Assembly: GCA_964016885.1 (NCBI GenBank)
Contig: OZ024740.1
Span: forward strand, 281,542,001 to 281,606,000
Reading direction: 5' to 3'
Source of the DNA: Eledone cirrhosa
Taxonomy: Eukaryota
DNA length: 64,000 bases
The first letter of the stretch is position 1, and each line of letters opens with the position of its first letter. Shown here in pieces: positions 5,749-55,372 of the stretch. Made by a program: the position numbers and the translations under genes. Under the pieces are notes generated by a model. That model saw only the letters and a list, made by a program, of their open reading frames with translations. It was not told where the DNA came from and did no database searches.

Positions 5749-5959
5749 ATAGGAAAAGAGTCAGGGCCCCGACGGCTGAGCTTCGGCCGTTTCGACAGCT
5801 AGATCTGTCTAGCCTTCAGTTCAGATCTAGTTGTCGAAACGGCCGGAGCTCAGCTGTCGGGGTCCTGACTCTTTTCCTATTACCCACTCTACTACCCTAA
5901 GTATCGAATACTCTGCTGCGTTATGGTCCACCTGGTTCCTTACCACAATTCCTTCGTTA
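5749..5959 (+). mobile_element. Hairpin-plus-tail repeat family H, copy 1 (3' half of a hammerhead inside a ~130 bp fold-back)
   Basis: Hairpin 5749-5880, then an 80 bp tail TACCCACTCTAC...CCTTCGTTA. Homologous copies at 23843, 44629 and 55173. Confidence 0.85.
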
Positions 5960-6146
5960 AAGTTCATAGGTTGATTAAGATACTCTTATGGAATGGCCAA
6001 ATTAAGCTTATTTTTTTCAACATAGTCCCTGGAAAGAAACAATACCGTTATTAATAAGAAGAGTTGAAATTAATGCATGGAAGATTTCACAGCTCTAGCA
6101 TCACTCCTTCATAATCAGCATATGGACCTTTCAGCCCATCCTCGTA
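5960..6146. mobile_element. MITE/deletion derivative of the mariner at 24017-25243
   Basis: Left part matches ~24035-24105; right part matches ~25150-25243 and ends CAGCCCATCCTCGTA. Confidence 0.75.
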
Positions 6147-8073
6147 TATACGGCATTCTTGTACACTTAGTGAGGTAACTGTGATATGATTACAGTTTAA
6201 ATTACTCACAACGAGACTATACATATACTATACTGTCCGATACATAAACAAATTGCATATGCTCAATATAAGCCTTTAATCAGAATCACACTGCATTAGT
6301 GCTATTACTAATTAATATTGGCCCACCATAATTGCACTATATGTAAATAAGCCATTATCAAAAATAAGTTGTCTTCAAAGACTACATATAAGAGGTTATT
6401 GACTCCCGTGTCTCAGTATACTGCAGTAAGTAAGCGTTCGTTGAAGATGGATTAACGATCTTGGATTATATCCATAAAGTGCTACCATGGTATCTGTAAT
6501 ATTATCACAGCCTAAAATACTCACGGTGATTCTATATGTATGTCTATTAGCCATAAATGAATTGTATATGTTTCAATGTACACCTTTATTTTGAATCGCG
6601 CTGTGTTATTGCTTTTGCTAATAAACAATAAATAATATATTCTAATAGGCTCTTTCTTTTTCACATATGTATAACATATAATTATGACTGTAGCAATATA
6701 TGGATGTATATATTGCTACGGTCATAATTATATAAACTATGACATATACCAACGCATAAGATATTATATTTATCTACGCTCCACCATTCCACCCCATATA
6801 CCACAAACACACGCTCAAAGTTGATCTACATAACTCTAAAATTAACACATGTACATATTTATAAGTAATCAAATATTTATACACACTTACAATCTCTATG
6901 GGACATCCCGTTTACATATTCATTTTCTATAAGTAAAGAACCATAGGGAATTTGAGTTGCTTTGATAAATTATCTGGAAAATTTACATTATATATTCTGT
7001 TTAAATGTTAACAAATATGTTCTAGAATTTTATTTCTAAATGATTTAACAGATAAACCAATTATATATTTCACACACAGGATAAAAAATTTAAATATTCG
7101 TAATTCACTGTATGAGATTATATATATTCATTTAGTAATCCACCTCCCGCCAACACAACTGTGGGTAAGATTATACTATATCTGAAGATCTCAAACAAAG
7201 GCAAAATGACAGGAGCTATCTCCCGAACTTGTCGATGAGAAAATATATAAATCATCAACTAATTATACTTGCATGTTTAGATGAATATGTTATCTTCTCC
7301 TTTTCAACCTATGAAGTATTGAAAAATCTCTAACCCACTTCACAGTGTTCATCAGTAGATGATTAGCCATATCCATTTCAATAAAGCAAACATGTGATAT
7401 AGTATAATATTGATGTCTTTCCTAAGTTCAATATTTATGTAAGATATCATTGAAACCAGATAGTGAAGGTGATCGCCATTACAATATTGCCGATATATTT
7501 ACAGTTATTCTGTTGTTACGTTTCCTTAAACGATTTTTGATAAATTTGTTCTAATGCTTTAAATGTGTAGAAGGACAGCTGTATTAATAGGCTCTTCGCG
7601 TGTCATACTAATTATTTATTATAATAATTTCTCTTCAAAACTTTCTATTGTCCTTAGGAAGGATACATGTAAATAAAAAAAACCTTGATTCACAACCCCA
7701 CCCCCATATTTAAAATATTTTCTCAGTTGTAATAACTTAAGCATTGTTACTGCTTCAGAATTAGTGTAGAAGCGTTTATAAAATACGTGAACAACTGTGA
7801 CTGTCTATTTTCAATATCTAGAAGAACTACCGAGTCAAGTGGTTTGCGATATCTCCGAAACTATCGATAGCTTAGCGAATGAAAGGCTCGTAGTGATTTT
7901 CAGATTTAACGTTTAAATTCATTATATATCTATATATATATAAATGTATGTACAGTATATTTGGTAATATACTGTATGTTTAATTAAAAACATCATTTTG
8001 AAGGCCTTGCGCTATTATTTTAAAGTAGTGACTATGTCACTTACTTCTTTTTTCGTCAAAGGAAGGGAGAGAA

Positions 8074-8114
8074 GCTGACAGATTCTGTTTCACACTGTTG
8101 GTGTTCCTCAGAGC
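8074..8114 (-). ncRNA. Type I hammerhead ribozyme motif
   Basis: Reverse complement of the 8375-8415 motif. Confidence 0.85.
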
Positions 8115-8374
8115 TGAAAAAAAGAAGTAAGTGACATAGTCACTACTTTAAAATAATAGCGCAAGGTCTTGAAAATGTGTTTAATTAAACATACAGTATA
8201 TTACCAAATATACTATACATACATTCATGTATACATCGCTATTTCAGAGCACCAATCCTAATTTTTAATTTTTTCTGGACCGGCAATCGCTCTGTATAAT
8301 CAGTTCCTGATTATTACTGGAATTCTATAAGAATCCAGCCTCTATAATTTTCGGCAGAGGTCGGCGAGTACGTC

Positions 8375-51736: not shown

Positions 51737-52069
51737 TGTATATATATATATATATACATATATATATATATATATATATATATATATATATATATATATA
51801 TATATATATATATATATACATACACATATATACATACATACATACATACATACATGTATATATATACATATATATATATATATACACATATACATATAAA
51901 TATACATATATATACATATACATATATATACATATATATATATACATATACGCATACATATACATATATACATATACATATATATACATATACATATATA
52001 TATATATACATGTATATATGTATATATATATATTTATATGTATATATACACATATATATATCCTTTCTG

Positions 52070-54912
52070 AATTTGTAACGAGTCAGAGGGAAGGGACAGG
52101 AGTAACAATGAGAGACATAGAAGCAACCATGAGGCTGTTGGTGGAAATAGAAACAACAACACAACTAACAATAGCAATAGAACATACAACACAATCTGGA
52201 ATTCCACTTTCTATGACCCTTCTGATATGTCCTTCGACTGGCGACGAGACCACGCCACGACTTTAGTTTTTAACAAACGCACGCAATTGCCGTCGCAGGT
52301 TGAACAAACAGAAGCACAATTTAATATAGCTATATATAAACTTAGAAAGATTATAGAACAGCATACCAAGAAACAGAATAGATGGAGGCCTAGCAACTGG
52401 GAGAATAATCCGAAAATGGTTTGGGTAAGCTCATCAACGCTCACGTAATGGAGAGATTGCATGCTTTCCAACAGACAAATCTGGAAAAATGTCGGTTGAC
52501 AGTCTGTCAACCTACATCCAGGCAATGTAACCACATATCACAAACACAAGAGAAGTAACACCACAAGAGCATGAGGACAGGGAGAAAACCCTCAACGCTC
52601 ATATAATGATGTCGACAAACACAATGCAGCCCAATAAACGGACTGCCAACAACATCCAGGCCTGGAACAATGACGTGCCAGCGTTGTAAGGGCTTCGAAA
52701 AGACCATAAGACGAACAGTGACTCAGTCACAGGACCACCAGCACGGCCAGTCTGTGGAGCTAACATTGCTAGCAACTACAGACTTTTCTACTTCCTCTCC
52801 CTGATCATACACCCCATAATTGAAAGGTCCCCAAATATATGTGACAGCACGGAGGACCTCCTCAGCATAATCAGCGAAAATAACCTGTCTAGGGACCTAA
52901 CAGACTGTATAATAGGTAGTATGGATGTAGTGTCCCTAAACCCATCCATTGACGTAGATTTTGCTGTGGAGAAATGCGTGGAAATGATCAGTGAGAGCAA
53001 TGTTGAATTCCGTTGGATTGATACCAGTGAGCTGGGATTCCTACTTAAACTTACATATAATAATGAATACCTAGATACATATGACCTTAGCAACCTCTGT
53101 CCCACAAGGCCAGCAAGAGGCAGACCACCTACCATTATTTCAATGGCCAAGAAAACCCACACAGAAAGATGGAACGGGTGGACAAGAGCCTTACGGACCC
53201 CCGAAAACCATGATGATCGCACATGCGGTGGGGGCCAGTATAAAACTAGCCCTTAAGGAACATATGTTCAAATTTAATGGAAAAACATATGCCCAAGAGG
53301 AGGGAGCAGCCATTGACGTTAGCATTTTAGGTGACATAGCTAACCTATTTATGGTATGGTGAGACAATAAACTTAAGAAACAATTAGAAGACAACAATCT
53401 CTTAACCCTGATTATGTACTCGCGCTACGTTGATGATATATACATCGTAGTAAAAACACCCCCACTAGAAAACAGTCAGGAATTAGAGAAAAATACCATG
53501 GAAAGCATCCAGCAAATAGCTAACTCCATCCACCAGAATATCAAAGTTACTATAGACTACCCAAGCAAAAACCCCAACCATCGATTACCTGTACTAGACA
53601 CAGAGCTCTGGTTAGAAACCATTAATAACAAAAAACAAATCCTCCATTCCCATTATGCCAAACCCATGACTTCCAAATACTTGATCCACCGAAACTCAGC
53701 TGTTTCGGATCACATAAAAATCAACATACTGATTGCGGATTTAGTAAGGGTAATGAGAAACGTGTCTCGCATGTACAACCCAAGAGAATTAGAGAGACAC
53801 ATACAACACTTCATCCACCGTATGCAGTTCTCTGGCTACAATCGGAGAGATGAAATCAGAGTATATAAAGGAGCCAGGAACAAATGAAAAAAATGGTAAA
53901 TAATGATACAAATGGGACCTGCCCTTGTATAGGAGCAAATTTTGGAATATAATAGAAAGAACTAGGAATAAGGTTAATAAAATGAACTCATGGTATGATA
54001 GCAATAAATACCAGAGTGTAATGTTCATCAATACAAACCTAGAGGTGAACTAGCTTACAAATTTAGAAGGGCTATAGATAAACTTAAACTAAATATTAAG
54101 ATAATGGAAAGACCAGGTACCTCCATAAAATCACTAATTAGTAATACATACCCTTTTCAAAGACCTCTCTGTATAGATAGGAAATGCATAATCTGTAAAC
54201 TAAGCCCCCGTATTAACTGTAAAACTAGAAATGTAGTATATAGCATACAATGTAAAAATAAGAATATAATGTACATAGGTGAGACAGCTCGTAGCATAGG
54301 AGAACGGTTAAATGAACACTGGTGAGAACTTCAAGATAGAAAAGACTCATCAATACTCCACCAACATGCTAAAATAGAACATAAGGGCAAATTATAGAAC
54401 ATAGAGATAAAAATAAGATCTACACATAGAAAAGACGCAATGCTTAGACAAATCACAGAGGCAATAAACATAAATGAACTCTAACCAAAATTAAATAGAA
54501 AACATGAATGGAATAGAAACATCACAACTTATAATTACGGACAAAATGAAAACACACACACATAGAACAAACAACTAACTAGTAACATGTAAATAAACAA
54601 ATAAAAACACACAGAGACACCCGGATGTAACACATGTGCAAACTAAGCACACAACACACACAAAAACAAGATGGGGTAGGACAAAACAAAGGAGAGGCAC
54701 AAAACAAAGAAAATAATCCCCAGTCACTGAAGAGGTCACAGAATGTGTGACGAAAGAACTTTGACAATATATGAACAACCATCCGATTGTGGAACCAACC
54801 AACCAACCGGAAATTGATAAAATTTATATTTATAAAATTTATAATAAATTGAAGTGAAAGCACCTGGTACGTGTGTTTCTTATTGGCAACATGACCCTCC
54901 CAAAGTATAACA
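52070..54912 (+). mobile_element. PLE clade B, decayed RT plus GIY-YIG with pLTR
   Basis: KDHK, RPVCGA, GSMDVVSLNPSI, GAAID, YSRYVDD, LPVLD, NCKTRNVVYSIQC, YIGETARS; stops and frameshifts. Confidence 0.92.
54723..54765 (+). ncRNA. Minimal hammerhead motif
   Basis: GTCA-CTGAAGA-G-GTCACA-GAATG-TGTGAC-GAAA-GAAC-TT-TGAC. Confidence 0.82.
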
Positions 54913-55172
54913 ATATATATATATATATATATATACATATATATATACATATATATATATATATATATATATATATATATATATATATATATATATATAT
55001 ATATATATATATATATATACATATATATATATATATATACATATATATATACATATATATATATATATATATATATATATATATATATATATATATACAT
55101 ATATATATATATATATATATATATACATATATACATATACATATATATATATATATATATATATATATATAT

Positions 55173-55372
55173 ATAGGAACGAGTAGGACCCGACGGCTGA
55201 GCTCAAGCCGTTTCGACGGGTAATTTTTTTTTTGTCCAGAATTAGCCGTCGAAACGGCTTGAGCTCAGCCGTCGGGGTCCTACTCGTTCCTATTACCCAC
55301 TCTATTACCCTAAGTATTCAGTACTTTGGTGCGTTATGGTCCACCTGGTTCCTTACCACATTTCCTCCTTTA
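55173..55372 (+). mobile_element. Family H copy 4
   Basis: Hairpin 55173-55293 plus tail, wholly inside (TA)n. Confidence 0.88.

Follow-up and report, generated by a model that had tools for sequence, protein, structure and literature searches.

The window analysed here, a stretch of 64,000 nucleotides from Eledone cirrhosa (NCBI GenBank assembly GCA_964016885.1, contig OZ024740.1, positions 281,542,001 to 281,606,000 of the forward strand), contains copies of a short hairpin with a one-sided tail, termed family H. These hairpins form the shortest class among the more than 35,000 insertions of a Hydra-type Penelope-like retrotransposon. That family H originates from a Penelope-like element is practically certain. 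In the account that we consider probable, two nicks in a (TA)n target would prime two separate complementary DNAs (cDNAs), one at a site termed E1 and one at a site termed E2, 80 nt upstream; both cDNAs would run off the 5′ end of the RNA and would then be joined head to head. The two walls at which the arms stop would both represent RNA ends: one at -18/-22, a capped transcription start inside loop II of a hammerhead ribozyme, and one at +23, the new 5′ end created when a complete hammerhead in a downstream repeat cleaves itself. Both primings would usually take place on the same repeat of one RNA; short hairpins would arise from the 5′ repeat, and long inverted-repeat insertions from a downstream one. 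The cDNA ends would be joined bluntly or via 1-6 nt of microhomology, often after untemplated additions, and the E2 polymerase would tend to lead, with the E1 polymerase behind by strand displacement. Positions are counted from the G of GAAA (0), which places the predicted cut at +22/+23, E2 at +42, and E1 at +121; genome-wide match counts refer to the 3.0-Gb animal assembly. An earlier reading of the window from its letters alone (the original prediction) had centred the hairpin exactly on hammerhead stem II and had regarded this stem as the structure used for self-priming of second-strand cDNA synthesis.

Family H is genuine, numerous, and not a product of chance, because a 29-nt word from its tail has 35,509 exact matches genome-wide and the reversed-word control has none. 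Most copies are minimal hairpins of ~200 bp. In one locus (L010), 193 bp of the element's own open reading frame (ORF; 1254-1446) are captured between two short arms, and a search with this reverse transcriptase (RT) fragment retrieved long elements whose 3′ end is family H. The parent unit is ~3.55 kb long and comprises an intact ORF of 717-719 aa, a 3′ untranslated region (UTR) of ~1.3 kb, the hammerhead, E2, the 80-nt tail, and E1. In tandem copies, E1 passes directly into the next ORF (379 exact tail-ORF junctions genome-wide). Arrays of near-identical units of 3,531-3,543 bp were found, two of which contain four or more units apiece whose frames are open, and neighbouring 3,531-bp units in one array differ by 1 base.

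By motif scan, the parent protein (718 aa) carries RWR, DKT, YRDD, CxCx5C, YIG, CxxC, and CxH and lacks GxKF/Y. Apart from RWR in place of RWK, this is the motif set among the Hydra-clade traits described in PMC8557442, and the flanks of the copies display the (TA)n target of that clade; the unit length exceeds the generally <3 kb given for it, a general rather than strict trait. The assignment to the Hydra type is thus one by motifs and target traits. Traits of Penelope-like elements at large are present as well, namely a single ORF with RT and C-terminal GIY-YIG, tandems forming pseudo-long terminal repeats (pLTRs), an inverted 5′-truncated arm, and an optional tail. The nearest Atlas clusters (0.96-0.99) bear HTH_animal, GIY-YIG, and RVT_1 on part of their members. 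A Pfam scan of the parent protein returned 0 families, PDB and phage searches with the parent ORF yielded nothing useful, and a bacterial promoter scan, a scan type not applicable here, gave 0 sites. The subfamilies of the element (L167, L173, and L185 compared with L141) have the ORF and the last 100-400 bp in common and differ in the mid 3′ UTR.

The original prediction had postulated a parental form with ACCCC and the 5′ half of the ribozyme core upstream, linked to a Penelope-like ORF. Such a parent exists, with the core YUGANAA, a long stem II, and a loop of ~33 nt instead of the expected CUGANGA. (A search for a CTGANGA parent at a gap of 3-33 nt, in which neither the core nor the gap was correct, had given 63 matches with mixed junction sequence but had not retrieved a conserved parent.) The parent hammerhead is of type I: three helices surround the core, with G10.1-C11.1, A15.1-U16.1, and an NUH site. 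Stem I is formed by ACCCC/GGGGT, and its distal helix terminates at E2 (+42); the core sequence YTGANAA (RNA YUGANAA) lies at -63 to -57, stem II has 9-10 bp, stem III has a palindromic loop, and GUC occupies +20 to +22. The CCCCTGA half is linked to GAAACGGC in 1,518 matches genome-wide, compared with 0 for the control. Across 16 aligned parents, 91.8% of cells were paired in the type I fold vs 33-56% in slid controls. The lowest-energy fold of one parent (L185) contains all three stems, and three other folded parents show them only in part. At the core 3-8 pair, 11 of these 16 parents have U3-A8, a natural covariant known to be active (PMC3088659, PMC4209133), and 5 have a C3-A8 mismatch; U3-A8 was found in 10/10 parents of the subfamily with the intact arrays and C3-A8 in 40/40 parents of another. 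The 5′ half of the core is absent from the hairpin copies in the window. The insertion ends at +23 described below would be an indirect sign of self-cleavage by the parent hammerhead.

Junctions were examined in 144 tail-anchored copies that were jointly aligned (29 loci selected for similarity of the tail, 90 for their location on contig 1, and the window). An inverted arm lies within 300 bp in 120 of them, and 119 of these arms were labelled E2 (~5 labels are doubtful, with an outer flank that is not TA). Genome-wide strand matches for the outer ends of short hairpins numbered 1,238 for E2/E1, 34 for E2/E2, and 45 for E1/E1, the symmetric classes often being counted on both strands; a free choice between the two sites would give about half mixed ends. 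Both E1 and E2 end in TAT, which the TA tract continues, and the parent sequence runs beyond both ends, in agreement with the microhomology-mediated joining to TA that had been suggested. The first 30 arms found to pass the ribozyme core had a long partner in 19 cases, a short one in 4, and none seen in 7, vs 1 of the 119 short copies (partners more than 300 bp away are uncounted in this figure, to which L010 and L264 may add two; a p-value for the coupling calculated with it comes out too strong). As had also been noticed, arm sequences covary within a copy: the two arms carry the same stem I bulge, a subfamily marker, in 71 of 95 parsed copies (shuffled mean 14.6, maximum 27). Possible cross-subfamily arm pairs occur at L168 and L195, each of which hangs on one or two bases. 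Because ends are paired E1 with E2, long arms have long partners, and the subfamily marker is shared, the data point to both primings on one repeat of one RNA. Purified Poseidon protein is reported to cut and extend both target strands in vitro from two RNA sites flanking the tail (PMC11167929).

The tabulated fold-back points fell into 103 junction types among 119 copies, and spacer-less palindromes are common. This variety bears on the reading of the hairpin as a DNA transposon, i.e., a miniature inverted-repeat transposable element (MITE), a Helentron, or a TA-targeting Mutator type, descended from one ancestral hairpin. Such an origin would account for the fixed asymmetric ends, the inverted arms, the TA-repeat target, and the high copy number, and is nevertheless extremely unlikely: in addition to the 103 junctions, a continuous series with the same ends leads up to ORF-bearing tandem arrays, and several subfamilies each have their own retroelement parent. 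Single junction types may still have spread secondarily as DNA. The earlier view that neither a MITE nor a Helentron is involved thus stands, the partner found being a retroelement. The centring on stem II turned out to be an appearance only, as the true 5′ strand of stem II lies ~46-56 nt before GAAA and is absent from the hairpins, the centres of which fall at variable positions in the 3′ part of loop II. A stem II does exist and might also form in the cDNA; that it serves as the self-priming hairpin is nonetheless scarcely credible, as the junction predicted by this model (the whole loop joined to TCGAAAC) has 0 matches genome-wide for the c2/c3-type loops searched, compared with 2,166 loci of a single different junction class, hardly any arm extends as far as the 5′ strand of stem II, and sibling families fold back away from it. 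In these sibling families, the same hairpins are centred tens of bases upstream of an intact hammerhead (L009, L010, and the window pairs 25415/25667 and 26915/27083).

A more general form of self-priming, in which a single E1-primed cDNA folds back on chance microhomology and primes a second strand up to E2, with the palindrome centre later trimmed by deletions, would explain both the matched arms and the E1/E2 pairing, and self-priming has been proposed from palindromes at inverted junctions (PMC3846280). Under a lenient test, in which the arm may not reach further in than its template and a loop of at least 3 nt is needed, 49 of 119 junctions were compatible with fold-back (32/86 in the subset not picked by likeness to copy 3) and 70 were not, including 10 of 21 copies with identical arms. 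The tailless (E2) arm reaches further inward in 44 of the 119 short copies and the tailed (E1) arm in 28, and in many long copies the tailless arm carries the ORF, at odds with the original description of the left arm as a self-copy of the right one. Among long insertions, the tailless arm was the longer one in 19 of 29 (by eye in a non-random sample, four near-ties or unclear cases left out), and this form reaches up to a 16-kb array; fold-back is disfavoured here because a long tailless arm cannot template a short tailed one. Untemplated bases occur at both inner ends, and these as well as the tailless-longer form are already seen among copies with identical arms. We regard chance fold-back as improbable on these grounds, and the arms were very probably copied as two separate cDNAs.

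Where the arms end inside the element is consistent with the proposed RNA ends. The first wall, 18-22 nt upstream of GAAA, falls on an initiator-like motif within loop II: inner ends of the two arms, independent of each other, pile up at -10 to -23 (91 of 119 E2 arms, 78 E1 arms), and beyond -30 only 2 E2 arms and 1 E1 arm were found. Arms that pass the core continue for hundreds to thousands of bases. At 2,166 loci both arms reach -18 and end within 8 nt of each other. Among the first 50 of these (by eye), 14 have AAATTT, with both arms reaching -22 and overlapping on AT, and 3 have no insert; single-base inserts are C/G in 8 and A/T in 1, and a C...G reading was made in 5. No G at -19 was seen in any parent among the 100 matches listed of the 1,518 CCCCTGA-linked arms. 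A cap-like base at -19, for which the evidence is the set of 2,166 loci, was not evident in an unparsed local tally. Untemplated G marks capped templates in L1 and SVA (PMC4859970). The motif TTAGT/TCAGT at -20 to -16 is kept in the 16 aligned parents, one variant loop excepted, and is overlapped by TCATTT in the young subfamilies. Both motifs presumably fit the initiator consensus. Of 30 copies that run from the tail into the ORF, 9 begin between -21 and 0 (by eye), and six of these are joined to a short inverted arm. For the Penelope of D. virilis, a transcription start inside the upstream pLTR has been described (PMC2377424). We infer from these insertion ends that the transcript starts inside loop II and that the first wall is its capped start. 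Since such a transcript would begin inside loop II, RNA of the 5′ repeat and the hairpins made from it would lack the 5′ half of the ribozyme, and stem II would need no special role in its loss.

The second wall coincides with the predicted cut. A pattern for very short hairpins had 441 matches genome-wide. Of the first 100 rows, inspected by eye, 67 show both arms terminating at +23 to +26 (two rows represent a single locus). Nineteen of these 67 are perfect palindromes and most others have short inserts, single inserts being A/T in 11/11 cases (by eye). All 15 hand-picked rows that were fetched are whole insertions with tails, and the solitary window copy at 23849 also starts at the predicted cut. 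By a rough estimate, the cut-site class makes up ~2% of copies vs 0.2% expected from independent stops, i.e., about ten times as much. It is likely that the +23 ends record ribozyme cutting in living germ cells, as judged from the positions of these ends. Cut-site hairpins did not prove confined to U3-A8 subfamilies, as the C3-A8 subfamily supplies 9 of the 67; this is about its ordinary share (5 of ~34 copies that the pattern could match), and therefore core quality does not predict membership in the +23 class. Either the C3-A8 subfamily still cuts, or the +23 wall is partly structural.

A structural origin of both walls, i.e., two target-primed cDNAs whose polymerases stalled at RNA structure (contacts of loop II, the base of stem III), would be in keeping with the position of both walls inside the folded hammerhead, with the +23 hairpins that the C3-A8 subfamily still yields, and with the fact that the walls are known from DNA ends. 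We consider it unlikely, as both arms stop at the same base in about ten times more copies than independent stalls would give on the rough estimate above, the stop falls between +22 and +23 and not at the helix base, and the inserts differ by wall (C/G vs A/T). In addition, many arms of the sibling families seem to begin near a TCACT motif upstream of the ribozyme (by eye).

Several points weigh against the account of two target-primed cDNAs that run off capped or cleaved RNA. The lead of E2 in short copies is weak (44/72, p = 0.08), and a test for an effect of age on fold-back compatibility was neutral (10/21 incompatible copies with identical arms vs 38/68 others, p = 0.62); later loss of hairpin centres could have erased signatures of fold-back. 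In the pairing counts, the two commonest subfamilies (29-nt spacing) were missed by one base of gap, so mostly older subfamilies were counted. At the first wall, the C at -19 is templated in one subfamily, a cap is not required for the addition of an extra C, and the match to the initiator consensus is presumed. Covariation lends the hammerhead fold modest support, with 3 two-sided changes and a score that was attained in 10 of 500 shuffles, the fold z-scores of the parents range from -2.0 to 0.0, and the C3-A8 subfamily contributes to the +23 class at about its ordinary share. Perfect palindromes at -22, -18, and +23 sit on the self-complementary dinucleotides AT, TA, and CG, and microhomology or later deletion could have favoured these forms, an objection that only the forms with untemplated inserts escape. 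Both the transcription start and the cleavage are read from DNA ends. For Poseidon, priming without target homology and no RNA reads ending at the cut site are described (PMC11167929).

Beyond this account, the insertions may be a fossil record of the Penelope-like cycle as a whole. A polymerase dimer would prime both nicks on one RNA, using two fixed sites strictly once each; transcription would start inside the element's own hammerhead, so that the 5′ repeat would be unable to cut and the downstream repeats would be able to; cleaved RNA would be reverse transcribed in the germ line; and circularised monomers would template identical arrays. This extended version comes close to an even chance without reaching it. 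A circular template, which PMC4209133 proposes, would be compatible with the identical multi-unit arrays of the U3-A8 subfamily, with read-through or DNA duplication as alternatives. Tandem arrays of at least four near-identical units with open ORFs (L317-L320; G000:C1:91.474-91.494 Mb and 437.196-437.216 Mb), each terminated by a short inverted arm, are possible rolling-circle products. At the inner joint of one array (L318, ~5200-8700), a 55-bp piece of the ORF is repeated ~60 times, which looks like repeated template jumping or later expansion. In L321 (3514-4170), a 257-bp unit that runs from -21 through the tail to ORF base 114 forms head-to-tail repeats behind a normal E2 arm.

Much of this architecture has precedents. 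An inverted truncated arm, a one-sided tail, a TA target, and a pLTR hammerhead are already known (PMC8557442, PMC3846280). As described in PMC8557442, the Hydra clade shares with the parent the C-terminal GIY-YIG, RWK-like, DKT, CxCx5C, and CxxC motifs and CxH near the C end, and with family H the (TA)n target, the pLTR hammerhead, partial tandems, the inverted 5′-truncated arm, and the tail at one end; its elements are generally <3 kb with a 30-40-nt tail, compared with the 3.5-kb unit, 1.3-kb 3′ UTR, and 80-nt tail found here. Unlike in that description, the core is U3-A8 or C3-A8, stem III is full, and most insertions are minimal hairpins of ~200 bp. Anolis Poseidon resembles family H in vitro, with both strands cut and extended, two internal RT start sites that bound the tail, and a protein predicted to be a dimer (PMC11167929). 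The same source describes start sites without target homology, the use of either site on both strands, and no reads ending at the cut, whereas family H has TAT homology at both sites, one-plus-one pairing, and DNA ends at the cut site. Minimal hammerheads of metazoan Penelope-like elements (PMC4209133) are likewise of type I, lie in pLTRs, have a palindromic loop III, and include the U3-A8 covariant in Schistosoma; opposite-strand pairs 100-700 bp apart are described there, and a circular template is proposed for tandems. In vivo cleavage evidence is stated to be absent in that account, whereas here the ribozyme is split by the putative start and half-ribozyme hairpins dominate. The inverted pLTRs of Adineta (PMC3846280) are similarly arranged head to head, show palindromes where they meet, may carry a tail on one of the arms, and contain an initiator-like motif; for them, self-priming on an antisense template was inferred, whereas the family H junctions point to two separately primed, sense-templated cDNAs. 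L1 twin priming (cited in PMC4859970) likewise starts from both target nicks on a single RNA, and its two cDNAs end up joined as an inversion. Non-LTR retrozymes (bioRxiv 10.64898/2026.07.22.740005) are, like family H, short non-coding hammerhead repeats from a Penelope-like pLTR; they form head-to-tail tandems of whole ribozymes, whereas family H consists of dispersed head-to-head pairs of half ribozymes.

The defining retrozyme trait, head-to-tail repeats each with a whole hammerhead, is accordingly absent from family H, and its copies look like dead-end products of the coding element. In L1 twin priming, the upstream site at which the second primer anneals varies, and there is no overlap between the arms; unlike this, family H has a fixed second site and a single stretch that is copied into both arms. 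No report of half-hammerhead hairpins, strict E1/E2 pairing, or insertions ending at the cut site was found in the open literature; Repbase and subscription papers, outside its scope, could hold the family.

Penelope-like elements are the closest retroelement kin of telomerase. The origin of their inverted repeats and one-sided tails is stated to be an open question (PMC8557442, PMC11167929), and in vivo cutting by their hammerheads is stated as unshown (PMC4209133, PMC11167929). Tens of thousands of family H junctions argue against self-priming and for two paired primings, and they would mark the RNA start and the ribozyme cut at single-base resolution. If the extended version is true, it would settle the origin of the tails and inverted pLTRs and provide the first in vivo trace of hammerhead cleavage in Penelope-like elements. 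With intact, near-identical source arrays present, each step is open to test. For annotation, hairpins of the family H type resemble MITEs and would be misfiled.

Within the window, the three hairpin-plus-tail copies and the solitary tailed arm lie where they had been placed; the latter spans 23849-23949 (forward strand). Copy 1 belongs to c1, the oldest subfamily seen, for which a parent arm was found in locus L106. It consists of a tailless (E2) arm at 5749-5807 (reverse strand; inverted, from E2 back to ~14 nt before GAAA), a junction between the arms at 5808-5821 (no strand), a tailed (E1) arm up to E2 at 5822-5880 (forward strand; stem II 3′ strand, GAAA at 5836, stem III, and stem I 3′ strand, with the predicted cut after 5858), and a tail from E2 to E1 at 5881-5959 (forward strand). 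The arms 5749-5807/5822-5880 are 93% complementary, and the loop is CGGAGCTCA. Copy 2 has its tailless (E2) arm at 44629-44689 (reverse strand), terminating at the initiator-like motif at position -18/-19, the junction and tailed arm up to E2 at 44690-44755 (forward strand), and the tail at 44756-44834 (forward strand); its arms 44629-44689/44695-44755 are 93% complementary as well. In copy 3, the tailless (E2) arm is at 55173-55225 (reverse strand), the junction at 55226-55239 (no strand), the tailed arm up to E2 at 55240-55293 (forward strand; GAAA at 55251, predicted cut between 55273/55274), and the tail, with its E1 end in a TA tract, at 55294-55372 (forward strand). The T run in this junction is likely untemplated A added at a cDNA end. 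The solitary arm, which is without a partner arm, has as its first base the one directly 3′ of the predicted hammerhead cut, and it follows a (TG)n run.

The tails of the three hairpins are 79 nt long each and end at 5959, 44834, and 55372. Each of the three left arms begins with ATAGGAA after a TA tract, which agrees with the common outer end of the left arms reported earlier, and a motif scan of the window copies likewise found no CTGANGA preceding the right arms. The right arm as a hammerhead 3′ half holds as a reading, except that copy 2 has GAGA (GAAA -> GAGA at 44713) where GAAA had been stated. The copies had been described as lying within TA runs, but the right flank of copy 1 is mariner-like DNA: a transposon end at 5960-6030 abuts this copy and is related to a mariner-like transposase fragment at 24038-24535 (reverse strand). 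No match to Rfam was obtained at the gathering score anywhere in the window.

The sibling-family pairs at 25415/25667 and 26915/27083 are opposite-strand pairs of canonical CTGANGA hammerheads, i.e., hairpins with a whole ribozyme in both arms. A family H arm is joined to an arm of a different Penelope-like family via 5-nt microhomology in L045 (~1500-1560). Other Hydra-type Penelope-like ORF fragments, 29-56% identical to the family H protein, were found in the window at 57085-58934 (reverse strand), 28271-29253 (forward strand), 49198-50559 (reverse strand), 47323-48038 (reverse strand), and 40113-40340 (reverse strand). Two broken copies of another, probably Penelope-like family occupy 52071-53887 (forward strand) and 59967-62268 (reverse strand) and have their own hammerheads at 54727 and 58954. 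A LINE-like element at 31691-35871 (reverse strand) has open frames of 1,045 aa (endonuclease and RT motifs) and 390 aa.

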